Below are positions 3,047-54,790 of a stretch of DNA of 54,790 bases, piece after piece. The number at the start of each line of letters is the position of its first letter. Position 1 is the stretch's first letter. Source of the stretch: Patescibacteria group bacterium (lineage in GTDB: Bacteria; Patescibacteriota; Patescibacteriia; Patescibacteriales; GWC2-42-12); the NCBI GenBank assembly GCA_028703305.1, contig JAQVNC010000001.1:1-54790 (forward strand), in the 5' to 3' direction. Below the pieces are notes generated by a model. The model ran no database searches and was not told the origin of the DNA. It saw only the letters and a list, made by a program, of their open reading frames with translations. A program made the position numbers and the translations under genes.

Positions 3047-3150
3047 AAAACCTTTTTTAAAAAAGGTTTTAATATTTCCAAAAAATATAAGGTATCAAGT
3101 AAAAATTTAATAGCGGGCAAAGCCCTACGGCCATTAAATTTTTACTTGAT
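3047..3150 (-). repeat. dispersed intergenic hairpin element, copy 1
   Basis: 3102-3134 is the exact reverse complement of 17183-17215 (33 nt); AT-rich arms 3094-3111 / 3133-3150; flanking blocks also similar to copy 2. Confidence 0.8.
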
Positions 3151-5767: not shown

Positions 5768-7219
5768 CTAAACTTTGCTTAAATCCAAATAATCATCAAA
5801 CTTTATTTGCTTAACGAAATCAGGCATATGGCTAACCATTATCATAGCGCCCTCGTAATTATCAATTGCCTTGGCAATTACCGGCAAATGGCGAAAATTA
5901 ATATGGTTGGTTGGTTCATCCAAGACTAAAAGCCCCGGTTGCATAATCGTTAAGCGCGCGAAAGATAATAATCCTTTTTGCCCTTCGGACAGTTCTCTTA
6001 CTTTCCTGCCCATTAAATCTCCACTGATTAAAAAACCGGCCGCGATTGAACGCATAGCCTGCGTGTCTACGCCTTCTATTAAAGCGCCGGAGAGAGAATC
6101 AAAAACCGTTTGGCTAAAATCCAAATTGGAAAAATCTTGGCTATAATAGCCAACGCGAACTTTATCTAAGATTTTCGCGTGTTCATTTTTGCTTGAGACC
6201 AGCGAGCGCAAAAACGTGCTCTTGCCCACGCCGTTCGGCCCGGTAACTAAGAGGTGCATGCGCTTACGGATTATTTTATCAGCTTCTTTTATTATTGGCT
6301 CATGATTATGAATAACCTTGACGGCGCTGATTTTAACAATCTCGCCGGCAATATCTTGAGCTTTGATATCAAATTCTCTGATAGTTTTATCTTCTTGCCT
6401 GACGTCAACCATATCTTCTTCAAGCTCGGCGGTCTCATCTTTAAGCTTCTTGGCCAGTTTGCGCATCTTGCCGCCCTTATTGGCGAAAAAATTCACTTTT
6501 TCTTTTCTGTCTATAATCTGCTTTTTAAGCTGGGCGTTTTTTCTCTGTTCGCGCTCAACCCGCTTACTAATCTCTTCAACCACGGAGAAATAATCGCCGA
6601 CGTAAGTTTCAATTTTATGGGTAAAATTATCTAAGTAAATAACGCCCTCGGTAAAACAATTTAAAAAATCCGCGTCATGCGAAATGACTATGGCGGTTTT
6701 ATTGTACATGACTAAAAATTCAATCAGATGATCAATGCCGGCCTGGTCAAGATTGTTGGTCGGCTCGTCCAGCAAAAGGATATCCGGATTTTGGATTAAG
6801 GCAAAAGCCAATAAAAGCCTGGCTTGCTGCCCGCCGGAAAGCTCGCCCACTCTACGGTCGGTCGGCACGCTTAAATTTACCACCTCTAAAACTTTGGAAA
6901 TTTTACTGGCTAAATTAGGCTGTTCCATTTCAAAAGCTTTGGCAAAATATTCTTGAACGGTTAAAGCCAAATCTTCTTGCGCCATAACTTGGCGAGCCGT
7001 CGCGATAGAGGCGCCGTTAGTTATGGAAACCCGGCCCGATTTAGGCTTTAACTCGCCCATAATCAAGGCAAACAAAGAGCTTTTGCCCGCGCCGTTTTGC
7101 CCCATTAAAGTTATTTTGGCGCTTCGGCGGACGCTAAAGCTGGCCTCATCTAAAATAGGCTTGTTATGCTCATATTCAAATGTCACTTCATCAAATCGTA
7201 AAATTACTTCTTCGGCCAT
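5768..7219 (-). CDS. ABC-F family ATPase
   Basis: Two ABC cassettes (Walker A GQNGAGKS and GPNGVGKS; signatures LSGGQ and LSEGQ) joined by a charged linker, no TM domain; start moved to ATG 7219. Confidence 0.85.
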   Translation of the reverse strand: MAEEVILRFDEVTFEYEHNKPILDEASFSVRRSAKITLMGQNGAGKSSLFALIMGELKPKSGRVSITNGASIATARQVMAQEDLALTVQEYFAKAFEMEQPNLASKISKVLEVVNLSVPTDRRVGELSGGQQARLLLAFALIQNPDILLLDEPTNNLDQAGIDHLIEFLVMYNKTAIVISHDADFLNCFTEGVIYLDNFTHKIETYVGDYFSVVEEISKRVEREQRKNAQLKKQIIDRKEKVNFFANKGGKMRKLAKKLKDETAELEEDMVDVRQEDKTIREFDIKAQDIAGEIVKISAVKVIHNHEPIIKEADKIIRKRMHLLVTGPNGVGKSTFLRSLVSSKNEHAKILDKVRVGYYSQDFSNLDFSQTVFDSLSGALIEGVDTQAMRSIAAGFLISGDLMGRKVRELSEGQKGLLSFARLTIMQPGLLVLDEPTNHINFRHLPVIAKAIDNYEGAMIMVSHMPDFVKQIKFDDYLDLSKV

Positions 7220-7285
7220 AAAAAAATAAAAAGGCGTGAATTGCGCCATTAAAGTTAATATAACATATTATTCGAAAAAGTCTAG

Positions 7286-9834: not shown

Positions 9835-10338
9835 TTAATCGCAAAAATTTACGAGCATATCGGCCGGAAAGTTGTAATTGGCTTTAATCTTCCGGCAATC
9901 AACACTACCATTGCCGTCATAAACCAACTCCCATTTGCCATTTATTTTAGCGGCCAAAAACATGCCGCCAGCTCCGCCCTTAGGCGCGAATGAAACTCCG
10001 CCCTTGGCATACTCGGTATTTTCTTTATCAATTCTGATAAACACTTGGCTAATCGGCTTTTTATATTTTAAAGCTATGGCTGATTTTATGCTTTCGGCCG
10101 ATAAACAATCTTCTTCAAAAACACGGATGCATTTTTGCTTGGCGGCGCACCATGAATAACCGGCTGAACCGATGCAGCCATGCTCGTCTCGGTCGTTGCC
10201 GACCAGTGGCTGCGCGCTATTCTCCGCCGGCTGAACCGGAATAATAGGCGCGGTTTCGTTAGCCTGCCTGGTTGTTTGCGTGCAACCTAAAATTAACAAT
10301 AACGGTAAAATTACGGTTAAAATCAATAATCTTTTCAT
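9835..10338 (-). CDS. lipoprotein of unknown function
   Basis: 167 aa; signal peptide with lipobox LILGC; Cys-containing mature domain. Confidence 0.6.
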   Translation of the reverse strand: MKRLLILTVILPLLLILGCTQTTRQANETAPIIPVQPAENSAQPLVGNDRDEHGCIGSAGYSWCAAKQKCIRVFEEDCLSAESIKSAIALKYKKPISQVFIRIDKENTEYAKGGVSFAPKGGAGGMFLAAKINGKWELVYDGNGSVDCRKIKANYNFPADMLVNFCD

Positions 10339-17164: not shown

Positions 17165-17290
17165 ATCATTAAATAAAATTTTATGGCCGTAGGGCTTTGC
17201 CCGCTATTAAATTTTATTTAATACATTATATTTTTTGAAAATATTTATCATCCCCTTGTGGGAAAAAACTTTTTCTAAAAAAGTTGTTAA
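17165..17290 (+). repeat. dispersed intergenic hairpin element, copy 2
   Basis: 17183-17215 ATGGCCGTAGGGCTTTGCCCGCTATTAAATTTT is identical to the reverse complement of 3102-3134; downstream TTATATTTTTTG block also shared. Confidence 0.8.
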
Positions 17291-27446: not shown

Positions 27447-28142
27447 ATGACTTTCCATATCATCACCATCTTCCCTAAAATTTTTGACTCTTATTTTAAC
27501 GAGAGCATTCTTAAGCGCGCGCGAACCAATAAATTAATAGACATAAAAATCCATAACCTGCGCGACTGGACAACCGATAGGCATAAAACCGTGGACGATA
27601 CCCCGTTCGGCGGCGGCGCCGGCATGGTCATGAAAATTGAGCCGCTTTATAAAGCCCTTCAAAGTATACCCCTCTTTAACAAGGGGGGTAAGGGGAATTT
27701 AAAAACAAAAACCATTCTACTTTCCGCCAAAGGCAAAACCTGGAATCAGAAATTAGCCAAATCACATTCTAAATTAAACGACATCATTTTAATCTGCGGC
27801 CGCTACGAAGGCGTGGATGAAAGAATTACAAAATTTATTGATGAAGAAATTTCCATCGGCGATTATGTTTTAACCGGCGGAGAAATCGGCGCTATGGCGA
27901 TTATTGATTCCATCACTCGCCTACTGCCAGGCGCTTTGGGCAACGCGGACAGCGCCAAAAACGAGTCTCATTCTGTCCCCGGGGTTTTGGAACACCCTCA
28001 ATATACGAGGCCAGAAATATTTACAGCTTCCGGCAAATCATATCGCGTACCCAAAGTATTAATATCCGGTAATCATAAAAAAATCGCCGATTGGCGCGCC
28101 AAAAAATCTAAACATATCCGCCCGTCGTCATCCCGGGCTTGA
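27447..28142 (+). CDS. trmD: tRNA (guanine37-N1)-methyltransferase TrmD
   Basis: 231 aa; TrmD motifs ([34 protein letters not shown]); the last codons lie inside a REP-like hairpin. Confidence 0.9.
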
Positions 28143-28200
28143 CCAGGGATCCAATTCCTTCCCCTTTGTCATTGCGGGCCACGACCCGCAATCCATTTCC
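28127..28200. repeat. two tandem REP-like hairpins, GTCAT-stem-loop-stem-ATCCA type
   Basis: GTCATCCCGGGCTTGACCAGGGATCCAATTCC (28127-28158) and GTCATTGCGGGCCACGACCCGCAATCCATTTCC (28168-28200); a third copy at 36468-36500. Confidence 0.8.
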
Positions 28201-28248
28201 TTAATTTTATTTAATTTTAGCCATAAAAAAGCCAATCAATATAAACGA

Positions 28249-28280
28249 TTGACTTTTTTTTGATTTTATGCTATTATAAT
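28249..28280 (+). promoter_or_regulatory. promoter candidate for cassette 1
   Basis: TTGACT (28249-28254), 17-nt spacer, TATTAT (28272-28277) overlapping TATAAT (28275-28280). Confidence 0.5.
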
Positions 28281-28465
28281 AAGTTAGTTCTTTTGGTATT
28301 TCTTATGCCAAATAGAATGAAAATCGAGCCTTTTTACTTCCCTCTTGACCTGTTTATTTTTAGACATGCCAAGGGTGAGGTAAAAAGGTTCGATTGTCGA
28401 ACCTTCACAACTCAAACAAATAAAATAAAAATAAATATAAAAAAAAGAAAGAGAGGGCAGAGGAA

Positions 28466-29338
28466 ATGAGTATCCAAAAGGTTCATGCGCCGAAAACTCT
28501 AAGAGTCAAATCTGGAGAAAAAAAACAAATAGGCGCAAAGGCAGTAGGAGCAACAAATAAGGAAGAAAAGGAGTTGCTCTATACAGTAATAGGAAAAGGC
28601 GAGGTAGATCCCAAAGGAGTTTTTACGGCTCCGAGCTTAACTAGCGAAGAGGAAACAATAATTATAACAGAATCAGCATTCGATGATTCTATGACAGCGG
28701 AGACCGTCATTACCATTGAGGCTATTAAACCCTTAGCAGTTAAGCCAGCTTACGGCCTAGAACTATTTGCCGGCGCGAACAAGAAGTTTGAAGCGGATTA
28801 CCCGTTTCCTGTTTCCCCGAGCTGGCATATTGGAAATTTAGCCAGGGGTATAGGCAACATTGACGTGAGCACGGGGCTTTATACTGCCCCGGAGATTATC
28901 CCGCACGAAGTCGAAATAACCATTGTTTTAATCGATAAAAATCGGCCAAACAACTTTGCTGAAGCGAAAATCAGATTGTTTCCAATTGAGATGAAAGTCG
29001 GAACGCAGAGGAAGATTCACGCAGGAGAAGAAAATGTTCAACTCCCAATCGAATCACATAACGACTCAAGCGGATTAGATAATTTCACCTGCACAATCAT
29101 TTCCTCTCCAATGGTTGGGAGAATTATAGAGGACAATAAGTACGCCCCGCCATTAATCATTGACAGCCCTGAAATGGTAAAGGTAAAAGCAACATCAAAA
29201 TTGGATAAATCAAAGTCGGTCATTTTGGAATTTGAACTTGATCTACCTCTTTGTAGAGCTTGTAAAAGCATAACCAACTCAGACGGCCGCTGCACTATCT
29301 GCGGCATGCCGAGATCTTATGGTGCAAGCATTAAATAG
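28466..29338 (+). CDS. hypothetical protein: three Ig-like repeats plus C-terminal CxxC...CxxC zinc ribbon, no signal peptide
   Basis: SD GAGGGCAGAGG; repeats of about 85 aa ending GVFTAP / GLYTAP / KYAPP; CRACKSITNSDGRCTICG. Confidence 0.7.
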   Translation: MSIQKVHAPKTLRVKSGEKKQIGAKAVGATNKEEKELLYTVIGKGEVDPKGVFTAPSLTSEEETIIITESAFDDSMTAETVITIEAIKPLAVKPAYGLELFAGANKKFEADYPFPVSPSWHIGNLARGIGNIDVSTGLYTAPEIIPHEVEITIVLIDKNRPNNFAEAKIRLFPIEMKVGTQRKIHAGEENVQLPIESHNDSSGLDNFTCTIISSPMVGRIIEDNKYAPPLIIDSPEMVKVKATSKLDKSKSVILEFELDLPLCRACKSITNSDGRCTICGMPRSYGASIK

Positions 29339-29353
29339 AAAAGGAGAAATAAA

Positions 29354-30112
29354 ATGAGCTTCGAAAAAATAGGGAAAGTAATTGGTACCATCGTGGAGGT
29401 TCTTGAAATATTGGCTACCGGAAAACTTACTGGCGCTATCATGAGGCTTTTTCACGCGAAAGATATCAACAATAAGGCGGGTTCTTCAGTGGCCACGGCA
29501 ACCGGGGATCAAGCGAATGTTAAAACCGATGACGGAAAGATTAAATCTGGTGTTATCGGTTGGGGGCCGGAAGACAATATTATCAGAGAATCGATTATAA
29601 ACCTTTTGGCTACCAAAGATCAAATCAGGGAAACTACCTATCGAAACTTTGAGACCTGGCTGGAAAAAGAACATTTTTTTGACTGGGTATCTTGGATACA
29701 TTTTTTTACTATCCAGGCCGAAAAACTTCCAGACCAAGCGGTAATAACTCTTAACAACATAATTGACGCTATTACTCTTGGCGGCGGCAACGATGCTGGC
29801 CTGAAGTACATCCAAGGCTTGACCGGAGAAATTTATCTTAAGCTGTTAAAGGCTTACGGAAAAAAATTCTTCGAGATGATGGAGGCGCTAGCAAAAAAAT
29901 ATCCATGGCTTTCAGTAAATGAGTTAACAAAACTATTAAACGAGGGTGTGGGCAAAATTGAAGAAAGCCTTGATCATGGGGAAGCTTGGGTTAACATGCA
30001 ACAGCAAGGCAATTTCTGGCAGCGTCATTTCTGCCCTTGGCGATTACTGCAAATGCCACCGGATGTATCCAGCTACAATCAAAATTACCACAACAATGGA
30101 GGTGGAATATGA
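29354..30112 (+). CDS. hypothetical protein (mostly helical by eye)
   Basis: SD AAGGAG at 29341-29346; stop overlaps the next start (ATGA at 30109-30112). Confidence 0.65.
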   Translation: MSFEKIGKVIGTIVEVLEILATGKLTGAIMRLFHAKDINNKAGSSVATATGDQANVKTDDGKIKSGVIGWGPEDNIIRESIINLLATKDQIRETTYRNFETWLEKEHFFDWVSWIHFFTIQAEKLPDQAVITLNNIIDAITLGGGNDAGLKYIQGLTGEIYLKLLKAYGKKFFEMMEALAKKYPWLSVNELTKLLNEGVGKIEESLDHGEAWVNMQQQGNFWQRHFCPWRLLQMPPDVSSYNQNYHNNGGGI

Positions 30113-31242
30113 ACAGGCTCATTAACTTGCTAAGAAGAATTTCTTCTCTCGCATACAATTCCTATGCAGTAATCCATGCCCAATTTCCTGGATTTGTTGT
30201 GTATGGAGGATTGCTACCAATCTCGTTATCAATAATTTTTGCCTGCGCCGGTTATGATCGAGCAAACCAAATTTGCGCAGTAATTTGGGTATTGGTGGGC
30301 TTCTACATCGGGACCCTCCCGGTTGTAGTCGCGACATCAGCCGCCGCCGGAGCAGTATCTGATCCTAAACACCCAGTGGCCGGGGTTGAAGATAAAGTAG
30401 TAAAAGCCTATAAAGGCATACGAACCTACTTTTTCTATCTCGCCGCCTGGTCCTTAATTATCGGGGTTACTGGGATTTACCGCAACTGGGGAAGTATAAT
30501 AACTGTTCTGGCGATAATTATCGTTACCACTATGATGAAGGTTGCGTGGGGGGTGACTGGCAAAGGACGAGCTAGAAAAATATTTATTAGCGGCTTGTCT
30601 ATAGTTCTGGTCTTCAACTTTATGACCGTAATTTCTCCAGTCTTTTACAACAAGACTCTTGGTTTTGACCCCGTTACCTATTTTCGTCCATCGGTAGTTG
30701 ACGAACAAATTGTAAAGGCTGAAAAAACTGCCAAAGATATCAGGGATGCCTATGTCGGCCAAATGTTGGCTGGAATAAGCAATACGATAGACCCCGGAAC
30801 CGGCCAGCCTGCAAACATTGAGCTGCTTACCGTCCAAAAAGTCCGAGTTGAAATCAACGCACAAAAGATACAGGCCATCAAGGAAGAACAATATCCTCTG
30901 ACAATGAGCGGTTTTAAAAAAGCTGTTCTTTATTCATTCAGAAACCCTAGGGGAGTCGAGGGGGCAGAGGACAACCCACAAATCAGAATCGTCAAACACA
31001 GCGACAAGGCATGGGAGGTTGAATTCTTAACTGACCAAATGACTACTGTACTTCGACGATGGCCAGCCGGAGCAACAATTGTCTTCGCCGGTTACGAAGA
31101 AAAAGAAGTAACCAGAAATAACCCTGCCGGCGGAAATGAACCATTCTATCTACCAGTAGGAGTGCCACTCGGCAGAACGGCTGACACTTCGCTCATTGTA
31201 AAATATAAAGTAGGAGGAAAAATAATATTAAATTTCAGCTAG
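30109..31242 (+). CDS. hypothetical polytopic membrane protein with C-terminal soluble domain
   Basis: Start set to ATG 30109 behind GGAGGTGG; about 5 TM helices, then a soluble region of about 190 aa. Confidence 0.65.
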   Translation: MNRLINLLRRISSLAYNSYAVIHAQFPGFVVYGGLLPISLSIIFACAGYDRANQICAVIWVLVGFYIGTLPVVVATSAAAGAVSDPKHPVAGVEDKVVKAYKGIRTYFFYLAAWSLIIGVTGIYRNWGSIITVLAIIIVTTMMKVAWGVTGKGRARKIFISGLSIVLVFNFMTVISPVFYNKTLGFDPVTYFRPSVVDEQIVKAEKTAKDIRDAYVGQMLAGISNTIDPGTGQPANIELLTVQKVRVEINAQKIQAIKEEQYPLTMSGFKKAVLYSFRNPRGVEGAEDNPQIRIVKHSDKAWEVEFLTDQMTTVLRRWPAGATIVFAGYEEKEVTRNNPAGGNEPFYLPVGVPLGRTADTSLIVKYKVGGKIILNFS

Positions 31243-31261
31243 AAAATAATCTAGCCATAGC

Positions 31262-31299
31262 AGAGGGACAACGCTTAGCGTGCTTCCCTCTTTTTTTTT
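31262..31299 (+). terminator. intrinsic terminator of cassette 1
   Basis: AGAGGGA ... TCCCTCT stem followed by T9. Confidence 0.7.
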
Positions 31300-31353
31300 G
31301 TTTTATGTTATGTTATAATTTATATTAGATTGATATTATTAAACTATTTGATT

Positions 31354-31830
31354 ATGAAATCAAAAATCATTTTCATCTCACTTCTTTTACTAGTATTTTT
31401 TTCAATTCCTCTATCAATGGCTAATGCTGGAACATGCAAAAAGGGTGTTGAAACTGGCGGTCCCTGCCAAACAACAGTTGATTGCACAAATACAAATTAT
31501 GCCGGATATACCTGCGACACAACTAATCCTGCCACCTCCGGCACCGTCTCCCTCCCCAACCCAATTACTATCCCTGACGCAAATAAAGCCAACCCCATAC
31601 CCTACCTCCTCGGAATAGTTATCAACTCCGTTCTCGGCATTGTCGGTTCTTTAGCTTTGGTAATGTTCATCTACGGAGGAATTACATGGATGCTGTCGGC
31701 CGGCAATCAGGAGCAGGTGACTAAAGGCAAAAACATTTTAATCTGGGCGGCTGCCGGCATTGTTATTATTTTTACGGCCTACGCTCTAGTCAAATTTGTC
31801 TTAACCACGGTAACGGGAACCGGCGGATAA
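31354..31830 (+). CDS. TrbC/VirB2-like (T4SS-type) pilin paralogue with Cys-rich ectodomain
   Basis: Signal peptide ...SMANA; four Cys in CKKGVETGGPCQTTVDCTNTNYAGYTCD; core IYGGITWMLSAGNQEQVTKGKNIL between two TM helices. Confidence 0.7.
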   Translation: MKSKIIFISLLLLVFFSIPLSMANAGTCKKGVETGGPCQTTVDCTNTNYAGYTCDTTNPATSGTVSLPNPITIPDANKANPIPYLLGIVINSVLGIVGSLALVMFIYGGITWMLSAGNQEQVTKGKNILIWAAAGIVIIFTAYALVKFVLTTVTGTGG

Positions 31831-31850
31831 TATTATTTAAAAACCTTTTT

Positions 31851-31899
31851 CTCATAACTCACAACCCATAACATAAAACACGGCAATAGCCGTGTTTTT
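31851..31899 (+). terminator. heptamer array plus intrinsic terminator
   Basis: CTCATAA CTCACAA CCCATAA CATAAAA, then AAAACACGG-CAATAG-CCGTGTTTTT. Confidence 0.65.
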
Positions 31900-31958: not shown

Positions 31959-32306
31959 CTATTTTTCTACTTTTTTAATTATAGCCGATAAAATATTTCT
32001 TAACTCTTTAGCTTCGTTCAATAAATCATTCATCCTGCTTTTAAATTCGGGGTTCGCTTCAGCGATTAGTTCCAGCCAATGTATGGCCTCTTTAGATTCT
32101 TTTCTTGATATTTTTAGCCTGTGCACAAAATCCTTTTTCCCTAAAGAATCGTTGGCTTCGCGGTAATTAGCTCCTACTGAACCAGCCGACCCAACAACTT
32201 GGCCGATTAATCTATTATTCATAGAATTTTTTGGCAAAGCCTTGCATAATCTAATTACCCTTTTGGCAAATTCCGTTGTTCTATCTTCTAGATCAAATTT
32301 TTGCAT
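31959..32306 (-). CDS. four-helix-bundle protein (23S rRNA intervening-sequence protein family)
   Basis: 115 aa; typical QVVGSAGSVGANYREA and KESKEAIHWLEL motifs. Confidence 0.8.
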   Translation of the reverse strand: MQKFDLEDRTTEFAKRVIRLCKALPKNSMNNRLIGQVVGSAGSVGANYREANDSLGKKDFVHRLKISRKESKEAIHWLELIAEANPEFKSRMNDLLNEAKELRNILSAIIKKVEK

Positions 32307-34547: not shown

Positions 34548-35015
34548 TTACCATGACCAGGAGACTGGCATAACTCCGGTAGTCATGTATATGAGCCGAT
34601 TTAAGACAAAAGTAGCGATGGAAAAAGCTACTAAAATTATTACCAAACCGATGATGCCGTTAATTAACTGTTTTTTAGCCGATTCAACATTCTCTTCATT
34701 GCCGCCGGCCGTCATCCATCTAAACCCGGCATAAATAATAATCACTAAAGAAATTATACCCAATAGTTCCAAAATAATTCTAATTACTCTGGCTACCATA
34801 ATCCTGATATCATTATTCTCGTCCGCGGGATTAGTCTGGCCGTAAGCCGTGCCGCCAATTTCCTTAAGCCCGCCATTATTAACCGTATTCCACCAGCCCT
34901 CGGCTTTAACCTGATTAGAACCATTTAAATCAACTCCAACCGGCATTAAGCTCAAGCAGATGGACAAAAAGATAGCGCTTAGGCTATACTTTAAGATTCT
35001 TTTAGTCATAAACAT
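34548..35015 (-). CDS. TrbC/VirB2-like pilin paralogue
   Basis: Signal peptide; core IIIYAGFRWMTAGGNEENVESAKKQLINGIIGLVII between two TM helices. Confidence 0.7.
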   Translation of the reverse strand: MFMTKRILKYSLSAIFLSICLSLMPVGVDLNGSNQVKAEGWWNTVNNGGLKEIGGTAYGQTNPADENNDIRIMVARVIRIILELLGIISLVIIIYAGFRWMTAGGNEENVESAKKQLINGIIGLVIILVAFSIATFVLNRLIYMTTGVMPVSWSW

Positions 35016-41864: not shown

Positions 41865-42080
41865 AATGTTCTAATATAAATATACCACTAAAAAGAAAAT
41901 AAGTCAATGATCTAGCTATAACAACATAATGTTCTAATTTTAGCCAATTTTAATTTTTAATTTATACAAATCTAGACTTAAGTCTACATTCTTGTAGACT
42001 TAAGTCTAGTATTTATCCACACACCCCACTCGTTATCCACAATTTAATAATAACTTAAGTCCACATTTCTGTGGACTTAA
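41865..42080. other. DnaA-box / palindrome / iteron-like cluster
   Basis: AATGTTCTAAT at 41865 and 41928; CTAGACTTAAGTCTACA-TTCT-TGTAGACTTAAGTCTAG (41972-42009); TTATCCACA at 42013 and 42033; TTAAGTCCACA-TTTC-TGTGGACTTAA (42055-42080). Confidence 0.7.
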
Positions 42081-42087
42081 ATAAATG

Positions 42088-42160
42088 AGGTCTGGGAGGG
42101 AATCGAACCCTCGATAAGAGTTTTGTCTCGCTGCGCGAGATCTGGCGTAGCCAGACAGAC
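42088..42160 (-). pseudogene. tRNA-like element sharing the 3' half of tRNA-Cys
   Basis: T-arm and acceptor 3' strand are near-identical to tRNA-Cys, but there is no 7-nt anticodon loop; the 5' part folds as TCTGGC-TAC-GCCAGA and TCTCGC-GCA-GCGAGA. Confidence 0.6.
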
Positions 42161-42183
42161 TTAACTTATTCTCTAATAAAATG

Positions 42184-42254
42184 AGGTCATGGAGGGAATC
42201 GAACCCTCGATAACAGTTTTGCAGACTGTCGCCTTACCACTTGGCTACATGACC
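42184..42254 (-). tRNA. tRNA-Cys (GCA)
   Basis: Acceptor GGTCATG/CATGACC; anticodon loop CTGCAAA; T-arm GAGGGTTCGATTCCCTC. Confidence 0.9.
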
Positions 42255-43407: not shown

Positions 43408-43602
43408 ATGATAGACAGATATATCGGAATCGCTGTTGTGGCTGTATTAACTGGAGTGGTGTGTTATTTAATCGCTAAAAAAAGCGGCAGGAACGCTACA
43501 TTATGGTTTATGGCCGGAATTGTCTTTAATTTCCTTGCCATCGGCTTACTTCTACTGCTTAAAAACTTTAAACTGACAAAAAAAGCGCGAGGTGACTTAT
43601 GA
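43408..43602 (+). CDS. small two-TM membrane protein
   Basis: 64 aa; SD AGGAGG at 43397-43402; stop overlaps the next start (ATGA at 43599-43602). Confidence 0.6.
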   Translation: MIDRYIGIAVVAVLTGVVCYLIAKKSGRNATLWFMAGIVFNFLAIGLLLLLKNFKLTKKARGDL

Positions 43603-45278
43603 AGCTCAAATTATTGGTGAAAGGGTTGGTAATTCTGTTGGCCTGTGCTGCCTTATCTGTGTTACTTTGGGTATTTTCCCAACTACTCGGAATTTACTGG
43701 GTTTACGGGGTATTTCTCGGCGTGGCTATCTCGGCTTTTGGTCTGGACATTGTTTTTTCCAGAATGATAGCGGCCTTGCTTACCATCTTAACTTTGCTGA
43801 GCCTACCTTGGATTATTTCCTTTTTGTTATTAGGGAAAAGGAAGGCTTTGGTGCTGACCGTAGGCGTGATGTTGATTATTGGTGGAACCTTCGCCGTCTA
43901 CTACGGTTCTGCTGATGTATTCTTTGACCGCGAAACCGGTAAATCAGTTAAGTACTACATTAAAACCATGGACGGTTTTAGATTTTCCAACTCAGCTGAT
44001 TATGACCCAAGATTTGGCATAAAATACAAGGCCATCACGCCCGAGGTGGTCAAAGAATTCTACTTCTGGGAGAAAACCGGCAAAATGCAAAATATGCCGA
44101 ACGTAACCAGAGGAAAATATTTTGATCAAGTCACGGGCGAACCGATTGTCTGGTACGCGGAGAGACCAGATGGAACGCGGGAATTATTTCCTTTACCCGG
44201 CCACGATCCTTTAACCGGCAAAAACTTAAAATCTATGACCGCCGAAATAGCGGAAGCTATGGTCAAGGCCGAAAAAGAGCAAGAAGCAAAACGGGAAGAA
44301 GAAAAAAAAGCACAAATAGAGGCGCAACTTAAAGAAAAGGAAAGAGAACAGGCTCTGTCGGAAAAACAGAAAATTGAAGAAGAAAAAAAGTTAAGAAAAG
44401 AAAAAATACGAGAAGAAAAAGTATTGAGGGAAGAGCAAAAACCAAAAGAAAATCCTGCAGAAGCTCAAAGGAAAGAACAAAAACACTTGGCAGAAATTAA
44501 AGCCTTGAAGCAAAAAATTGAGGAAAAAGAAGCCGAGGCCAATGCCCTAAAAGTAGAAAAATTAAGAAGAGAACAAAAAAACAGAGACGCAGAGGCCAAA
44601 GCACACTCTCTACCAAAAAGGCAGATAATCAAATTTGATATGGACAGCTACTCTAAAGCGAACTTTTTTAGTGAACCGCTTTATGTCCATATTACTGTCT
44701 CTATGGGCACATCTGCAAAAAATTCACGGAAGACAAAACAAACAAACTATGGGCCAGTAGGAGGGTCCACTAATAGCGGCGGAGGATATAATGAGACCTT
44801 AAAAAATAGCAACTTTCGAACCGTCTTGACTTTTTATGTGAGAAAACTTTACACAGTTTCTAACCTTACTATAGCTGTTATAGGGGCCGAAAACTATGCA
44901 GGCTTATCTCAAACAATCAAATTTCATTCAGTCAAACTGGCGGATGAGTTAGGACGAGAGCATGAAGCCGTTTGTATATATAACATATCAACCGGCGAAT
45001 ACAACGATAATACACTGTCTTTTGGTATGGGGGAGGAAAAAATGATTGCTTTGATATTCCCTCAATCCAAACTAAGAAAATTGTTTTTCAAAATTAACTG
45101 GTGCGACAATTCTATCTTGAACTGCCAGGATGTTTACGGAACGTCGATGCCAGCCTTAACGCCAGGATCTTTCTATTCACCCCAGGAGTTGACACCTGCT
45201 GAATCTAGACCTTCTTTCCTGATTAGGAAGTCGACCATACCAGGAGTCCATAAATCACCGGTTATTAACCTTCCATAA
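43599..45278 (+). CDS. hypothetical membrane protein: 4-5 TM helices, soluble domain, K/E coiled coil, C-terminal domain
   Basis: 559 aa; motifs FFDRETGKSVKYY and YFDQVTGEPIVWY; K/E-rich stretch of about 110 aa. Confidence 0.65.
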   Translation: MKLKLLVKGLVILLACAALSVLLWVFSQLLGIYWVYGVFLGVAISAFGLDIVFSRMIAALLTILTLLSLPWIISFLLLGKRKALVLTVGVMLIIGGTFAVYYGSADVFFDRETGKSVKYYIKTMDGFRFSNSADYDPRFGIKYKAITPEVVKEFYFWEKTGKMQNMPNVTRGKYFDQVTGEPIVWYAERPDGTRELFPLPGHDPLTGKNLKSMTAEIAEAMVKAEKEQEAKREEEKKAQIEAQLKEKEREQALSEKQKIEEEKKLRKEKIREEKVLREEQKPKENPAEAQRKEQKHLAEIKALKQKIEEKEAEANALKVEKLRREQKNRDAEAKAHSLPKRQIIKFDMDSYSKANFFSEPLYVHITVSMGTSAKNSRKTKQTNYGPVGGSTNSGGGYNETLKNSNFRTVLTFYVRKLYTVSNLTIAVIGAENYAGLSQTIKFHSVKLADELGREHEAVCIYNISTGEYNDNTLSFGMGEEKMIALIFPQSKLRKLFFKINWCDNSILNCQDVYGTSMPALTPGSFYSPQELTPAESRPSFLIRKSTIPGVHKSPVINLP

Positions 45279-45353
45279 AAAAACAATTACATTTTCTGAC
45301 TATTAATCAACTTCGTTTTGTGAAGAAACCATCGTTCCTTAGATTAAATTGCG

Positions 45354-45382
45354 GAGCTGCTCAAAAAAGAGCAGCTTTTTTA
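45354..45382 (+). terminator. intrinsic terminator
   Basis: GAGCTGCTC-AAAAAA-GAGCAGCTT followed by a T-run. Confidence 0.65.
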
Positions 45383-45443
45383 TAAATAATTAATCAATTT
45401 TAGCCATAAAAAACTAATTTATATAACATTATTTCCAATTATC

Positions 45444-45472
45444 TTGACAATTAATAAATTTAATGGTATTAT
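45444..45472 (+). promoter_or_regulatory. promoter candidate for the lipoprotein gene
   Basis: TTGACA (45444-45449), 17-nt spacer, TATTAT (45467-45472). Confidence 0.5.
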
Positions 45473-45494
45473 ACAAAATCAGCTCCTTAAAAAA

Positions 45495-45559
45495 TTTTTC
45501 AAAATTATCCTAAATAGCGGGTTATAATATAGTCCTTTGCTTAGGATAATTTTGAAAAA
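45495..45559 (+). promoter_or_regulatory. 19-bp perfect-stem hairpin in the 5' leader
   Basis: TTTTTCAAAATTATCCTAA (45495-45513) pairs with TTAGGATAATTTTGAAAAA (45541-45559). Confidence 0.6.
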
Positions 45560-45594
45560 AACAAAAAATAAACCTTTTGAGGGGGTAAAGAACA

Positions 45595-46203
45595 ATGAAA
45601 ATAAGAACTTTCGCAGTTAGTATAATGGTGTTGGCTTTAGCGCTCGCGACCACCGGTTGCGTACGCGCAATCGTAAAGGACGTCAACCCGCGAGTTATAG
45701 GCAGCGATATCGATGCCACCGTTGAAAGGAATAAAGCTAACAAAGAAAAATATACAACTGCAATCAACGCGGAAAGTTTAAAAAGATCCCGAGCCGCAGA
45801 AAGACACCTAGTCGCTTTGGCAGAAATTAAAGGTTTATCAACCAGCGAAACCGGAAAAGGAGGAAAAGTACTTACTGCCGATGGTATTTTGGGCGGATTT
45901 CCAGCAATAATTATCAACGATTCCGCCTGTGCTGTCTCTGGAAAAATAACCCAAATAGGTGGCGATTATGGAGGTACTACCTGGTCTTTTGACGTTAAGG
46001 CCAATGGCGGAATAAAAGAAATGAAACTTGAATCGCGAAATTATGCCATAAAGTGGTCATATCCACCTTCGGCCATAAACCACCCTCTGCCCGGTGAAGG
46101 CGATTCTGTCTTAACTGTCCATGATATCGTTAAATACATTGACGATCGGACAAAAGCACAATATCATGGCGGATACAAAATCAAGGGCAGATCATGCTAT
46201 TAA
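45595..46203 (+). CDS. lipoprotein of unknown function
   Basis: 202 aa; SD GAGGGGG; lipobox LATTGC. Confidence 0.65.
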   Translation: MKIRTFAVSIMVLALALATTGCVRAIVKDVNPRVIGSDIDATVERNKANKEKYTTAINAESLKRSRAAERHLVALAEIKGLSTSETGKGGKVLTADGILGGFPAIIINDSACAVSGKITQIGGDYGGTTWSFDVKANGGIKEMKLESRNYAIKWSYPPSAINHPLPGEGDSVLTVHDIVKYIDDRTKAQYHGGYKIKGRSCY

Positions 46204-46308: not shown

Positions 46309-46776
46309 TCAATTTGGTTTTAGTGGGGTTAGATTTTCACCGCTAGTCCCAGTAGCGCCCGTTCCTGCGCCTGCGCTTCCCGGCAGATTGCTAAACACAA
46401 AATAAGTTATGGAATAAGCAAGAATAATAATAACCAGACCGATAACCGCGCGGGTAATTGTATCTTTAGCTTTAGTCACTTTTTCCTCATCCCCTTGCGC
46501 CGTCATCCAAAGAAAACCCGCGTAAATAATTAGCACTAAAAAGATAATACCTAGAAGGCCTAAAAAAGCTTTAATACCTGTAGCCATAATACCTGACAAA
46601 CTATTAGCGCCAGTAGTTACGTCTCCGCTGCCCCATGATGGCCGGCCGGCATTATTCAGTTGAGTTCTTAGGTCAGCATTAACTCCGGCGCTAGCATTTT
46701 GAGCTAAACAAAAATTTATTGCCAATGAAAATAATAATACCGCCAATATAATTTTTTTAAAATATTTCTTTAACAT
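46309..46776 (-). CDS. TrbC/VirB2-like pilin paralogue 1 (last in the array)
   Basis: Signal peptide; core IIYAGFLWMTAQGDEEKVTKAKDTITRAVIGLVII; G/A/T-rich C-tail. Confidence 0.7.
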   Translation of the reverse strand: MLKKYFKKIILAVLLFSLAINFCLAQNASAGVNADLRTQLNNAGRPSWGSGDVTTGANSLSGIMATGIKAFLGLLGIIFLVLIIYAGFLWMTAQGDEEKVTKAKDTITRAVIGLVIIILAYSITYFVFSNLPGSAGAGTGATGTSGENLTPLKPN

Positions 46777-46778
46777 AT

Positions 46779-47183
46779 TTATTTTAAAATTCCGCTGGTT
46801 TTAGTTAAACCATCAATTATCCAATAACTAATGGCATAAGCGCCGATAGTTATAATAAGGCCGATAACCGCCCGGGTTAGCGTATCTTTAGCTTTAGTAA
46901 CTTTTTCCTCTTCGCCTCTTGCCATCATCCAGCCATAGCCGGCATATATAATTAAAATTAAAAAGATAACGCCTAGGATACTTAAAAACGCTTGGATGCC
47001 AATGCCGACAATACCGGCTAAATCGTTTGTTCCGATACTTACCGGCTGATATGGGCTACTCGGGTCTTTACCCATTTTTTCTAAATTTCCATAAGCGTCG
47101 CTCGCGGCTGAAACAATATAAGGCAAGGCTAAAATTGCTATTAAACTAATTAAAATTACAAATTTTTTAAAAAAATTTTTCAT
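46779..47183 (-). CDS. TrbC/VirB2-like pilin paralogue 2
   Basis: Core IIYAGYGWMMARGEEEKVTKAKDTLTRAVIGLII. Confidence 0.7.
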   Translation of the reverse strand: MKNFFKKFVILISLIAILALPYIVSAASDAYGNLEKMGKDPSSPYQPVSIGTNDLAGIVGIGIQAFLSILGVIFLILIIYAGYGWMMARGEEEKVTKAKDTLTRAVIGLIITIGAYAISYWIIDGLTKTSGILK

Positions 47184-47245
47184 TATTTTAAAATAATTTT
47201 TATATTTATAATTATCTGTTTGTGCTAAATTAACAATATTCTTAA

Positions 47246-47716
47246 TTACTCGCCTTCGCCGCCGCCATCCGGGTACTGTGTCGCTGCCGGCGTTGTCCCA
47301 GCGCCCGTTGTATTTGCGCTACCACCGCCATTTAAAGTTCCGGCCGCTAACTTATCCATAACAAAAATACTAATGGCATAGGCCGCTACCACGATTATTA
47401 TACCGACAATCGCTCGTGTTATTGTTTCTTTAGCTTTAGTAACTTTTTCTTCTTCGCCCCTGGCCATCATCCAGTTATAACCCGCGTAGACCATTAAGAT
47501 TAAAAAAACCACGCCTAATATAGATAGGGCTCCGCTTATTACTGTGTTTATAATTGTAAAAAGTTTATCTCCAGAAGCATCTTGATATCCACCCTCTGTC
47601 ATGCTTACGTCTTGCAACTTGCCTAAAGCCGCGTTGTCAGCAGACACTAAATGCGGCAGCATAATAAAAGCAACCAGCCAAACTAACAAAATAATTTTAA
47701 AATATTTTTTAAACAT
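47246..47716 (-). CDS. TrbC/VirB2-like pilin paralogue 3
   Basis: Core MVYAGYNWMMARGEEEKVTKAKETITRAIVGIII; G/T/A-rich C-tail. Confidence 0.7.
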   Translation of the reverse strand: MFKKYFKIILLVWLVAFIMLPHLVSADNAALGKLQDVSMTEGGYQDASGDKLFTIINTVISGALSILGVVFLILMVYAGYNWMMARGEEEKVTKAKETITRAIVGIIIVVAAYAISIFVMDKLAAGTLNGGGSANTTGAGTTPAATQYPDGGGEGE

Positions 47717-47743
47717 CTTTCACTTATTTAAATAATTTAACTT

Positions 47744-48157
47744 TTATTTTAAAGTCGCGTCACCCAAAACCTTAACTACATACCAGCTAATTCCATAAGC
47801 GGCCAGAACCAAAATTAAACCAATAATCGCGTTAGTTAAAGTATTTTTGGCTTTGGTTACCAACTCTTCATTGCCGCGCGCCGTCATCCAAGTATAGCCG
47901 CCATAAATCGCCAGAGCTAAAAATACTACTCCAATAAAGCTTAAAATCGTATTAATAACTAAAGAAATCATCTCGTCCGGCTCGGTAATGCCCGTGTCAT
48001 ACCCGGCCCCCTTGTCTCCGGCCACTTTATCAAGCGGTCCCTCGCCTTTAAAAGCGTCTTCCAAATTAGCGGCCTGGCAAAAATTTAAACTTAAAACTAA
48101 CAGAACAAAAACTATAGCTATCTTTTTTATAATTTTAAAATTTAAGATTTTAACCAT
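47744..48157 (-). CDS. TrbC/VirB2-like pilin paralogue 4
   Basis: Core AIYGGYTWMTARGNEELVTKAKNTLTNAIIGLIL. Confidence 0.7.
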   Translation of the reverse strand: MVKILNFKIIKKIAIVFVLLVLSLNFCQAANLEDAFKGEGPLDKVAGDKGAGYDTGITEPDEMISLVINTILSFIGVVFLALAIYGGYTWMTARGNEELVTKAKNTLTNAIIGLILVLAAYGISWYVVKVLGDATLK

Positions 48158-48525
48158 AAAGTTGCCGCTAACTGCGTTATGGCATAAGCGCCTAAAACCA
48201 CCGCCAAGCCTATAATCGCGTAAATTATAATATTTTTAGCTCTTTCCACTTCCTGCTCATTGCCTCGCGCCATCATCCAAATAAATCCGGCGTATATTAT
48301 TAAACCTAAAAAAACAACCCCGATAAACATAGTGGAAATACTTATAATTGCTCCTATTTTAGAATACAGCATTGTTGCCGAATTGTCTGTTGGGCTATAA
48401 CCCATTCCTGTGGCCGAGCTCTTGAGGCCGCTAAAAAAATCAGCCGAGGCCGGAGTCGTATTAACGTTAAGCAACAAAATACTTAACGCCACCAAGCCAA
48501 TTATTGAAAATGAAAAATTTTTCAT
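48142..48525 (-). CDS. TrbC/VirB2-like pilin paralogue 5
   Basis: Core IIYAGFIWMMARGNEQEVERAKNIIIYAIIGLAV. Confidence 0.7.
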   Translation of the reverse strand: MKNFSFSIIGLVALSILLLNVNTTPASADFFSGLKSSATGMGYSPTDNSATMLYSKIGAIISISTMFIGVVFLGLIIYAGFIWMMARGNEQEVERAKNIIIYAIIGLAVVLGAYAITQLAATLWLKS

Positions 48526-48527
48526 AA

Positions 48528-48923
48528 TTACTGCCCCTTAAGAGTGTTGCCCAAAAAAGAAGTTATGGCATAAGCCATTAAAACTATTGCCAAGCCGATA
48601 ACCGCGGCGATTATAATATCTTTAGCTTTGCCGGCTGTCTGCTCATTGCCCATGGAGAACATCCATATATAACCGCCGTAAATCATTAAAATAAAAAAGA
48701 CTACGCCTAAAAACGATAAGCCCACACCCACGATTTTTCCAATGGTTATTTCTAGATTATCTTTTGTTACGCCGCCATAGACTTTTGCGGTATCATCTAG
48801 ACCAGTCGTTCCGACTGGATTTTTTGGATCATAAGCCGACAACCCCACCTGCGCCATTACTAAAAATGACAAAACGATCATTAGGCTGGAAAGAATAATT
48901 TTATGATATTTTGTTATAGCCAT
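48528..48923 (-). CDS. TrbC/VirB2-like pilin paralogue 6
   Basis: Core MIYGGYIWMFSMGNEQTAGKAKDIIIAAVIGLAI. Confidence 0.7.
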   Translation of the reverse strand: MAITKYHKIILSSLMIVLSFLVMAQVGLSAYDPKNPVGTTGLDDTAKVYGGVTKDNLEITIGKIVGVGLSFLGVVFFILMIYGGYIWMFSMGNEQTAGKAKDIIIAAVIGLAIVLMAYAITSFLGNTLKGQ

Positions 48924-48925
48924 AA

Positions 48926-48968
48926 GAGATTGCCGCGTCGCCCCGAGTACGGGGCTCCTCGCAATGAC
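48926..48968. repeat. REP-like element, GTCATTGCGAGGAGC...GCAATCTC type, reverse orientation
   Basis: Reverse complement reads GTCATTGCGAGGAGCCCCGTACTCGGGGCGACGCGGCAATCTC. Confidence 0.75.
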
Positions 48969-49074
48969 AATAAAGTATTTCCACTGCTCTATTCACTATC
49001 GTTAAATAGCGCGCAGGGCAGTGGCTCCCGCCAAAGCGGGAAACCACCTATTCTTAATACCGGTATTAAGAAAA

Positions 49075-49488
49075 TTAACTTTCCGTAGTAGCCGTAATCA
49101 GCGAATTTAAAACAAAAGTCGCGATGGCAAAAGCCGCTACGATAATTACCAAGCCGATGATGCCGGCGATGATTAATTTTTTAGCTTCGCCAACCTTGTC
49201 TTCATTGCCTCCGGCAGTCATCCATTTAAAGCCGCCCAGCAAAATTATAACCACGGCAATAATGCCCAAGAAACCCAAAATAACGCGGATAACCGAAGCC
49301 GCGATATCGCGCGGATCGCGTTCACCCAAACCGGTGGTAGTCTTAATGTTGTCTTTTAGCGTATCGCTGCCCCAAGGATTTAAAGTATCGCTGGCCGCTA
49401 AAGCCGGCAAAGAAAAAGACAAAACCGGAGTTAAAACAAATAGCGCCATGGCCAGTATCACCGCTTTTTTGAATAATGTTTTTTTCAT
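49075..49488 (-). CDS. TrbC/VirB2-like pilin paralogue 7 (first in the array)
   Basis: SD GGGAGGTG; core ILLGGFKWMTAGGNEDKVGEAKKLIIAGIIGLVI. Confidence 0.7.
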   Translation of the reverse strand: MKKTLFKKAVILAMALFVLTPVLSFSLPALAASDTLNPWGSDTLKDNIKTTTGLGERDPRDIAASVIRVILGFLGIIAVVIILLGGFKWMTAGGNEDKVGEAKKLIIAGIIGLVIIVAAFAIATFVLNSLITATTES

Positions 49489-54154: not shown

Positions 54155-54790
54155 TTAACTGCTGTAAATCACCTGTTTAATAGAGTCTACGTGTTGTTTT
54201 ATTTTTTCATCTTCTTGGCACTCCCGTTCTATTTTGTTATACGCGTGCATGGCTGTGGTGTGGTCGCGGCCGCCCAGTTCTTGGCCGATGGATGGGTAGG
54301 AGGCGTTAATTTCTTTGCGCATTAAATACATGGCGATTTGTCTGGGCACGACCAATTCTTTTTTACGGCTTTGCCCGACCAGATCTTTGATGTTTATGTC
54401 AAAAAATTTGGCGGCCGCCTCAATAATAGTTTTAGCCGTGGTTGATTTTGATTGAAAATTGGAAATTATGCCGGCTAAAATGCTTTTGGTTGAATCTATG
54501 GAAGGCAAGGAGTTATTAAACTCATAATAAGCGATTAAACGGTTTAAAGCGCCCTCTAATTCGCGGATGTTGTTGGTGATGTTGTTGGCAATATAGGCTA
54601 AAATTTCCCTATCAAGCTTATAATTTTTTTCCCGGCACTTGGTTTCAAGGATAGCGATTCTGGTTTCTAGATCCGGCGAGCTAACGTCAGCGATCATCCC
54701 CCACTCAAAGCGCGATAATAGCCTTTTTTCCAGAGCCGGTATGGCTTTGGGCGGCCGGTCGGAGGAAATTACTATTTGTTTGTTGGTTTG
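54155..54790 (-). CDS. dnaA: chromosomal replication initiator DnaA, C-terminal part (5' end outside the window)
   Basis: The frame stays open to the window edge (…QIVISSDRPPKAIPALEKRLLSRFEWG…); domain IV VVPRQIAMYLMRKEINASYPSIGQELGGRDHTTAMHAYNKIE. Confidence 0.9.
   Translation of the reverse strand, partial: QTNKQIVISSDRPPKAIPALEKRLLSRFEWGMIADVSSPDLETRIAILETKCREKNYKLDREILAYIANNITNNIRELEGALNRLIAYYEFNNSLPSIDSTKSILAGIISNFQSKSTTAKTIIEAAAKFFDINIKDLVGQSRKKELVVPRQIAMYLMRKEINASYPSIGQELGGRDHTTAMHAYNKIERECQEDEKIKQHVDSIKQVIYSS

Follow-up and report, generated by a model that had tools for sequence, protein, structure and literature searches.

A candidate pilin-linked cell-envelope module at a fast-diverging locus downstream of trmD in Patescibacteria

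Background

Patescibacteria live attached to host cells. Passages of two reports (PMC12102498; PMC12857230) name type IV secretion systems (T4SS) and arrays of VirB2-like pilins as two of the few systems with a demonstrated essential role in this attached lifestyle, and they describe the arrays as widespread in Patescibacteria and essential in Southlakia. In the part of the survey that treats them, the arrays consist of 2-11 divergent pilins of the PF18895 and PF04956 families (Quinonero-Coronel et al. 2025, PMC12102498; Wang et al. 2023 cited there). VirB6 is the base on which VirB2 polymerizes (PMC12857230; PMC9259494), and the proteins called 'extended VirB6' have five or more transmembrane (TM) helices and a C-proximal hydrophilic domain (PMC12857230). 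According to a passage of the survey, few or no VirB6 homologs can be detected in some classes of Patescibacteria, 'suggesting extreme sequence divergence' (PMC12102498). Here we describe a cassette of three open reading frames (ORF1, ORF2 and ORF3) and a pilin gene that lies downstream of trmD in a 54,790-nucleotide stretch of a Patescibacteria group bacterium (assembly GCA_028703305.1, contig JAQVNC010000001.1, positions 1 to 54,790), which we call the window. With about even confidence, we propose that this cassette encodes a fast-diversifying module of the cell envelope, specific to Patescibacteria, whose partner is a dedicated VirB2-like pilin. Probably it forms a hitherto undescribed part of a cell-surface or host-contact apparatus rather than being a recent foreign insertion.

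The window is a housekeeping-rich stretch of the chromosome that holds a 16S rRNA gene, ten tRNA genes and core genes such as rpsP, a KH-domain gene, trmD, rplS and the genes for PNPase, PBP1 and DnaN. A preliminary description, made from the sequence alone, had read the cassette as a horizontally acquired four-gene module, possibly a surface or host-interaction apparatus that works with the adjacent pilin. Every element that it listed is present, either exactly where it was placed or a few bases off (Table 1).

The pilin and its subfamily

The last gene of the cassette encodes a VirB2/TrbC-like pilin. In addition to its PF18895 match, the protein scores 24.4 bits against PF04956, which is under the cut-off of 27.9, and weakly matches NF045849, a pilin-like conjugal transfer protein. 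Its translation comprises a signal peptide (MKSKIIFISLLLLVFFSIPLSMANA), a variable region with four cysteines, and a two-TM core (LLGIVINSVLGIVGSLALVMFIYGG...ILIWAAAGIVIIFTAYALVKF). The gene has its own extended -10 element and its own terminator, as expected for the separately promoted, Cys-rich pilin that had been predicted here.

The best matches of this pilin are the cassette-adjacent pilins of five homologous loci (L001, L011, L005, L022 and L015; such loci are cited by L numbers throughout) and not its eight paralogs in the window. The pilin of L021 likewise matches cassette-adjacent pilins best. Because of this pattern, the cassette-linked pilin (the 'GSLALVMFIYGG' subfamily) is, as judged by sequence similarity, an orthologous subfamily of its own that is co-inherited with the ORF2/ORF3 pair. 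Its members have exactly four cysteines in the variable N-region at the window, L001, L005, L011 and L021 and none in L015 and L022. The four cysteines imply disulfide-stabilized surface knobs in some lineages.

ORF3, a predicted membrane anchor with an exchangeable head

ORF3 was expected to have about five TM helices and a soluble C-terminal domain, and both are borne out by a structure model and by the distribution of lysine and arginine residues (K+R). The AlphaFold model is confident, with a pLDDT of 84.5 overall and 88-96 in the membrane part. Among 60 family members, mean K+R is 3.6 in the N-terminus, 4.0 in the loop at residues 69-105 and 2.0 in the loop at residues 147-155, and it is 0.7 and 0.8 in the two short loops. 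Because positive charge is concentrated in the first three segments, ORF3 is predicted to have its N-terminus inside and its C-terminus outside, which would place the coiled-coil stalk and the head outside the cell. The surface location proposed earlier is plausible given this predicted topology.

ORF3 has only four close relatives, namely three clusters among 5.8 billion sequences and the L011 copy (P0012). A profile of the family detects at least 130 representative clusters at E <= 1e-3, with 78 at E <= 1e-10. Nearly all of these matches cover only residues 1-240, which is the membrane domain, and the C-terminal 100 residues of ORF3 recur on unrelated membrane anchors. Only N53, P71 and G185 are near-invariant in the 60 members, and no catalytic-type residues are conserved. 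The predicted cytoplasmic loops include a conserved K/R-H-P..G..D motif at residues 87-95. Foldseek searches with the ORF3 model yield weak cupin-like matches for residues 290-377 and none for the membrane domain in either PDB or BFVD.

None of the three ORFs had been assigned to a recognized family, and this is still the case after searches of Pfam, NCBIfam, PHROGs, PADLOC and PDB sequences, all of which came back empty. PADLOC returns no defense-system match for ORF1-3 or their homologs, with hits only at chance level near E = 0.005, and a profile of each of the three families finds nothing significant among PDB sequences.

These searches bear on the idea, offered as speculation in the preliminary description, that the polytopic protein has a VirB6-like role. 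In its strongest form, ORF3 would be a highly diverged true VirB6/PrgH, that is, a channel or pilus-base subunit of a T4SS encoded away from virB4, which we consider distinctly unlikely. Its layout of about five TM helices and a C-proximal hydrophilic domain resembles that of 'extended VirB6' (PMC12857230), a VirB2-like pilin gene adjoins it, and detectable VirB6 is scarce in some of the Patescibacteria classes treated in the survey passage (PMC12102498). However, ORF3 has no Pfam match at E <= 1, and none of the 60 family members has one at E <= 0.01, TrbL (PF04610), VirB6 and other T4SS families included. The PDB profile search is empty, and Foldseek against PDB, which is weakly sensitive for helical membrane bundles, finds nothing at E <= 0.001; its best 50 matches include no T4SS chain such as TrwI of R388. 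VirB3, VirB4, VirB8 and VirD4 genes are not found nearby; the window and the loci L020 and L022 (about 21 kb each) contain only housekeeping genes and pilins. Moreover, nothing in T4SS operons corresponds to ORF2, with which ORF3 is constantly paired. With every homology test negative, whether by Pfam, PDB profile or Foldseek, the likeness to VirB6 is best described as an analogy of architecture only.

ORF2, a constant partner

An ORF2-family gene lies directly upstream of every ORF3-family gene that was inspected. In the ORF2 protein, the N-domain is swappable and the C-terminal tail (W..MQ..GNFWQRHFCPWRL), which is basic/aromatic, is conserved. The partner is confirmed by a profile in the window, L001, L004, L005, L009, L011, L015, L017 and L021, and this profile recovers partners outside its training set with E-values of 5e-21 (L015), 2e-17 (L017) and 2e-20 (L021). 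The L022 partner shares the family sequence motif and has weak BLASTP similarity to L001 (0.003) and L011 (0.055), with no profile applied, and the L020 partner is assigned by position only.

The two parts of ORF2 vary with different neighbors. Its C-tail accompanies the ORF3 membrane domain; in L010 another sequence takes the place of this tail, and the next gene encodes an unrelated polytopic protein. The window type of N-domain is found only at loci that bear ORF1 (the window, L009, L010 and L011). Given this co-variation inside the module, the tail of ORF2 may bind ORF3, and its N-domain may bind ORF1.

The anatomy, linkage, synteny, rates and SD, codon and leader features of these loci are observed, and the following arrangement of protein contacts, surface exposure and function is inferred. 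The N-terminus of ORF3 would lie in the cytoplasm and be followed by five TM segments, with the stalk and an exchangeable beta-barrel head displayed outside. ORF2 would be a cytoplasmic adaptor whose basic/aromatic tail docks on the cytoplasmic face of the ORF3 membrane domain. In the subclade of the window, ORF1 would be an extra cytoplasmic protein that binds the subclade-specific N-domain of ORF2. ORF3 would most likely serve as a membrane platform, anchor or receptor for the pilin during host-cell contact or pilin assembly, a role analogous and not homologous to that of a VirB6-type base. The operon would be expressed from a conserved promoter through a structured leader and translation led by Shine-Dalgarno (SD) sites.

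Linkage between the pair and the pilin

A PF18895 pilin gene occurs one or two genes downstream of the pair in each of the eight loci whose available sequence reaches that far (the window, L001, L005, L011, L015, L020, L021 and L022). In L015 and L022 a gene for a secreted TPR protein stands between the ORF3-family gene and the pilin, and the truncated L017 contig ends inside a TPR-like gene of the same secreted kind. The module is not simply the four genes first described. ORF1 is present only in a subclade, and the core that is kept consists of ORF2, ORF3 and the pilin, with or without the secreted TPR protein. Together with the separate pilin subfamily, this arrangement supports the earlier suggestion of a pilin-linked module.

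The TPR proteins (L015, 2174-3208; L022, 11251-12309; L017, 4033-4284) are about 350 amino acids long and of a secreted or lipoprotein type, with a beta-rich C-terminus and SD-led genes. This insertion is confined to a sister branch of the ORF3 family.

The main rival explanation is that ORF2 and ORF3 form an envelope or signaling module that is unrelated to the pilin, and that their adjacency is an inherited gene order in pilin-rich genomes. We regard this as doubtful. It would account for a pilin gene with an independent promoter, an independent terminator and a different mode of translation. Pilin genes are also dense in these genomes, and several of the loci come from a single clade and cannot be counted as independent. 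However, the adjacency persists where the flanking genes are wholly different from those of the clade of the window, as in L020 (NusA and pyrophosphatase), L021 (pyrophosphatase and IMPDH) and L004 (UvrA). In addition, one pilin subfamily travels with the pair in seven loci.

Several points weigh against the envelope module with a dedicated pilin that we favor. The inspected loci number about a dozen, from roughly five independent lineages, of at least 130 ORF3-family clusters. Nine PF18895 genes occur in this window of 55 kb (the cassette copy, one at 34548-35015 and an array of seven at 46309-49488), and some adjacency is thus expected by chance. The pilin has its own promoter and is translated differently, and co-regulation with ORF1-3 is not evident. 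No gene for VirB4, VirD4 or other T4SS machinery is found in the window or in the fetched loci. With no characterized homolog, the putative function is drawn from gene neighborhood and predicted topology only. Finally, the AlphaFold model of ORF2 from four sequences, which bears on the docking idea, is helical and unreliable (pLDDT 35).

Translation signals and codon usage

The three ORFs were described as having strong SD sites that are lacking in neighboring core genes, and the pairing energies agree. The 16S rRNA keeps its CCUCCU tail, and duplexes with the anti-SD have energies of -8.6 kcal/mol for ORF1, -8.9 kcal/mol for ORF2 and -10.6 kcal/mol for ORF3. Energies of -6 kcal/mol or lower are reached by just 8 of the 52 genes in the window (Mann-Whitney U test, p = 0.004), which are ORF1-3, 43599-45278, 45595-46203, 54155-54697 and the array pilins 48142-48525 and 49075-49488. 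The cassette pilin has no SD (+0.6 kcal/mol), and the orthologous pilins at other loci are SD-less as well.

Most genes in the window have a TGnTATAAT-like box about 10-25 nucleotides before the start codon and no SD. Examples are found upstream of 4779-5729, 5768-7249, 9835-10338 and 3412-4689. This placement of the box directly before the ATG, combined with the missing SD, suggests that most mRNAs in the window are leaderless or have very short leaders. Because the SD-led translation of the cassette is unlike that of most genes of the organism, a separate control of its expression is suggested.

Codon usage also sets the cassette apart in the way that had been noticed. ORF1-3 favor GGA, GCA, AGA and CGA, whereas GGC, GCC and CGC are preferred elsewhere in the window (cassette versus elsewhere, GGA 0.37 and 0.15, GCA 0.28 and 0.07, CGC 0.06 and 0.29). 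They rank at the top of the sizeable window genes in A-ending codon bias. Their GC content of 0.40-0.45 is the same as in the rest of the window.

This signature recurs in relatives. At ten other loci, a strong SD precedes 24 of 25 cassette homologs compared with 8 of 53 neighboring genes (Fisher p = 3e-12), and A-ending codons are enriched in the cassette relative to flanking genes at seven of seven loci. Because the signature is kept in very divergent lineages, in which a scar of transfer would have ameliorated, it probably belongs to the module itself and is no trace of a recent acquisition. Either selection on expression or continual exchange in a common gene pool could maintain it.

A second SD-led cluster with A-ending codons occurs at 43408-46203, beside the seven-gene pilin array. 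It begins with a 64-amino acid ORF with two TM helices (43408-43602) that is ATGA-coupled to a gene for a 559-amino acid protein (43599-45278) with four TM helices, a K/E-rich coiled coil and a C-terminal beta-rich domain. The third member is a lipoprotein-like ORF of 202 amino acids (45595-46203). Neither Pfam nor NCBIfam has a match for the cluster, and the ORF3 profile does not pick it up. In its layout of anchor, stalk and head it parallels ORF3.

An old locus with fast-diverging genes

The genes rpsP, KH, trmD, cassette, ROK and GH occur in one order in the window, L011/L012 and L022/L023, and the shorter contig of L001 preserves the part of this order from trmD to ROK. Across L001, L011 and L022, identity to the window is 85%, 77% and 57% for TrmD and 87%, 77% and 52% for ROK, and it is 58%, 51% and 53% for the pilin and 42%, 44% and 25% for ORF3. 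For ORF2, similarity is limited to the tail in L001, amounts to 57% in L011, and is not significant in L022. The rate of nonsynonymous substitution (dN) is about fourfold higher for ORF3 (0.49-0.52) than for trmD (0.12-0.14). The ratio of dN to the synonymous rate (dN/dS) relative to L009 is about 0.13-0.14 for ORF1 and ORF2, which therefore are real genes under purifying selection.

Flanks and cassette do not tell the same history. The flanking genes place the window nearer to L001, and the type of ORF1 and ORF2 is that of L011, with ORF1 being missing from L001. On the combined basis of synteny, fast divergence and this incongruence, the locus is ancient and hypervariable and probably undergoes allelic exchange at a fixed position. 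An old syntenic locus with fast alleles that are partly exchanged would be typical of loci for surface structures or host specificity. An empty site is not seen between trmD and ROK in L001, L011/L012 or L022/L023, where ORF1 alone is variably present. A search for further loci from a four-sequence alignment returned only duplicates.

The spot just 3' of trmD is an insertion hot spot in relatives. It holds an rve-family insertion sequence in L001 (1135-2052), an 87-amino acid gene plus an AbiEii toxin gene in L011 (2634-3501), and in L022 (7032-7598) a gene whose product resembles type IV pilins and has an N-terminal methylation motif. The corresponding junction of the window (28143-28248) contains hairpins only.

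Such insertions, the mosaic makeup of the cassette, and the SD-led translation and A-ending codons that distinguish ORF1-3 from nearly all window genes would each be expected if the cassette were a recently acquired genomic island, a foreign four-gene block between trmD and the downstream core genes. We nevertheless judge this quite improbable. GC content does not differ from that of the window, no integrase domain is encoded nearby, no direct repeats flank 28.1-31.9 kb, and no tRNA-adjacent att site is present, with the nearest tRNA gene 1.7 kb upstream beyond rpsP, KH and trmD. Although L001, L011 and L022/L023 are deeply diverged, ORF2, ORF3 and the pilin share one genomic position in all of them, and the SD and codon signature is also found in the homologs of all seven other lineages. 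None of ORF1-3 has relatives in IMG/VR, and ORF3 has none among GenBank plasmids or phages. Thus, of the horizontal acquisition first suggested, what survives is a mosaic cassette and allelic exchange at a fixed locus, while a recent insertion is largely contradicted by the synteny.

A structured leader upstream of ORF1

The promoter predicted at the start of the cassette proves to be near consensus, with an extended -10 element (TGcTATTAT, to 28277) and matches at 10 of 12 positions. It is almost the same in L009, L011 and L001. Promoter identity to L011 is 92-93% versus 65-78% in the coding regions, and promoter and leader together are 94.5% identical to L009 versus 78-83% in the coding regions.

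The leader has the length of about 185 nucleotides that was proposed, and it is structured. Its 3' 136 nucleotides fold far better than shuffled sequences (z = -4.1, 0 of 200 shuffles). From four leaders, RNAalifold predicts 39 pairs, eight of them with compensatory changes; one predicted feature is a long-range pairing of 28321-28333 with 28384-28395, an alternative to the P3 hairpin. Of 12 cassette leaders, 9 contain a hairpin of at least 6 base pairs with TT[ACG]A[AC]AA directly after it, always 37-62 nucleotides before the ATG and with differing stem sequences (background rate 0.13 per kb). This pattern was set after the sequences were seen, and it is the basis for assigning the element to L011, L017 and L022. 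A covariance model built from four leaders matches the L010 leader (E = 7e-4) and marginally that of L011 (E = 0.4). A shorter covariance model of the P3 hairpin from six leaders does not retrieve more divergent ones, whose stems cannot be aligned with MAFFT. No Rfam family matches the leader at its gathering threshold, and by E-value there are only chance-level hairpin matches to miRNA models. Taken together, the sequence comparisons point to a conserved cis-regulatory leader.

A bolder proposal involves this leader, and we hold that proposal to be unlikely. ORF2, ORF3 and the pilin might form an unrecognized, self-contained pilin-display system that stands apart from the VirB4 cluster. ORF3 would then be a membrane base and surface stalk of novel fold that carries an exchangeable head for host recognition. 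A new leader RNA, in which a hairpin followed by UUGACAAU alternates with a long-range helix, would gate expression, and translation would be of an SD-dependent kind that is hardly used elsewhere in the genome.

Two other candidates in this region were rejected. A leader peptide (ORF 28260-28469, with an ATGA overlap with ORF1) does not keep its start codon and frame in L009 or L011. A second promoter at a conserved TTGACA after P3 is not followed by an acceptable -10 in any locus.

ORF1, a clade-specific accessory gene

ORF1 is a clade-specific accessory gene. Its homologs form only two clusters, and it is missing from L001, L004, L005, L015, L017 and L020-L022. The four cysteines of its C-terminal motif are invariant among homologs, and this motif has a faint PDB match to the zinc-finger region of RecR (E about 2). 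The L011 homolog (462 amino acids) has five Ig-like repeats, two more than ORF1, with internal repeat alignments at 1e-13. ORF1 itself has no Ig-like match in Pfam at threshold, and the L011 homolog matches PHROG 13745 ('Ig domain containing protein', E = 3.3e-6).

This last match and the Ig-like repeats of ORF1 recall phage proteins, and the genes are fast-evolving and mosaic with distinct codon usage. A degenerate prophage or other mobile-element remnant, for example one with receptor-binding or superinfection-exclusion genes, was raised as an alternative in the preliminary description, and we find it hardly credible. ORF1-3 have no PHROG match and no IMG/VR relatives, the ORF3 model has no BFVD fold match, and GenBank phages contain no relatives of ORF3. 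Structural, integrase and lysis genes are absent. Purifying selection and a conserved chromosomal position also speak against a remnant.

Organization of the locus

The three ORFs are tightly packed as described, with ORF2 and ORF3 overlapping in ATGA, and their start codons are in line with those of homologs (Table 1). A strong terminator follows ORF3, as predicted. The two hairpins that were called tandem and REP-like (repetitive extragenic palindromic) are present downstream of trmD. The label is weak, since a repeat family cannot be demonstrated: the motif GCGGG..CCCGC occurs three times in the window where 0.8 is expected, and the fold of this region is unexceptional compared with shuffled sequence (z = -1.4). 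The hairpins probably end the rpsP-KH-trmD transcript.

Table 1. Features of the cassette and their coordinates in the window
Feature	Position	Strand	Remarks
Two hairpins just 3' of the trmD stop codon	28130-28150, 28171-28192	+	Second stem has 8 perfect pairs
Sigma-70-type promoter of ORF1-3	28249-28280	+	TTGACT (28249-28254), 17-nt spacer, TGcTATTATAAT; TG present
5' leader, about 185 nt	28281-28465	+	P1, P2, P3, A-rich tract, SD
Leader P1	28292-28312	+	
Leader P2	28338-28348, 28370-28380	+	C-rich arm pairs with G-rich arm
Leader P3 hairpin	28387-28403	+	Followed by UUCACAAC (28404-28411), then A-rich tract
ORF1 SD in leader	about 28452-28462	+	
ORF1, 290 aa	28466-29338	+	Three Ig-like repeats, C-terminal CxxC-x9-CxxC, no signal peptide
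ORF2, 252 aa	29354-30112	+	Predicted soluble, all-helical
ORF3, 377 aa	30109-31242	+	N-terminal amphipathic helix, 5 TM, helical stalk, small beta domain
ORF3 domains (residues)			TM about 26-176; stalk about 196-277; cupin-like beta domain 292-376
Intrinsic terminator of ORF1-3 operon	31262-31291	+	Hairpin, nine U after, to 31300; -16.7 kcal/mol, z = -3.0
Pilin promoter, extended -10 TGtTATAAT	31311-31319	+	Short SD-less leader
VirB2/TrbC-like pilin	31354-31830	+	PF18895, E = 2.8e-11, 43.8 bits, cut-off 26.6
Terminator hairpin 3' of pilin gene	31875-31898	+	z = -5.6

Between the pilin and ROK genes lies a gene (31959-32306, reverse strand) whose product belongs to the family of 23S rRNA intervening-sequence proteins (PF05635). 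This gene is a local insertion; the pilin gene is followed directly by ROK in L001 and L011, and the L022 copy is elsewhere near the same locus.

Three further features were observed elsewhere in the window. A 48-nucleotide direct repeat (42078-42125 and 42174-42221) has copies that are 90% identical and 96 nucleotides apart. One copy overlaps the end of a tRNA-Cys gene (42183-42254, reverse strand), which is a partial tRNA duplication of the kind that integrative elements leave. A 41-nucleotide inverted repeat (3102-3142 and 17175-17215; AAAATTTAATAGCGGGCAAAGCCCTACGGCCATTAAATTTT) is 98% complementary across a distance of 14 kb. GC skew and gene orientation both switch near 16.5-17 kb.

Comparison with known systems

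The locus offers concrete candidates, in the form of a conserved and rapidly diversifying pair that accompanies one pilin subfamily across distant lineages, with one member carrying a swappable stalked domain. These candidates bear on how a monoderm cell handles pilins and on host specificity. The module is also a natural example of two regimes of translation initiation in one genome, one SD-led with long structured leaders and the other SD-less and probably leaderless. Their coexistence could reveal how reduced organisms separate host-interaction expression from housekeeping expression.

Several membrane proteins are known that serve one VirB2-type pilin and are encoded apart from ATPase genes, namely TraQ (a small chaperone that spans the membrane once) and TraX (a polytopic acetyltransferase) of F and TraF (a peptidase-like cyclase) of RP4. 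ORF3 has no conserved catalytic-type residues and is not known to be homologous to any of them.

Hypervariable loci for surface antigens or host specificity, such as pilin or capsule loci, occur at fixed chromosomal positions. Like them, the trmD locus has conserved flanks, fast-diverging inner genes, mosaic domain swaps and incongruent similarities. Silent cassettes, invertases and repeats of diversity-generating retroelements (DGRs) are not found here. A DGR or cassette-repeat arrangement was considered and dropped, there being no template/variable repeats and no flanking repeats.

ORF3 resembles VirB6/TrbL/PrgH proteins in being polytopic, with about five TM helices, and in being encoded near a VirB2 pilin. 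It differs from VirB6 in that its hydrophilic domain is predicted to lie outside on a coiled-coil stalk, in that it always occurs with a putative cytoplasmic partner, and in that no T4SS cluster accompanies it. The pilin arrays of Patescibacteria are another known system close to the cassette. The fourth gene of the cassette is a bona fide member of these pilins, and the window itself has a seven-gene array and two solitary copies, in keeping with the array sizes reported. Unlike the neighborhoods surveyed around virB4, the cassette has no virB4 nearby, and the passages of that survey that treat such neighborhoods do not describe a pair of the ORF2/ORF3 type beside a pilin subfamily (PMC12102498).

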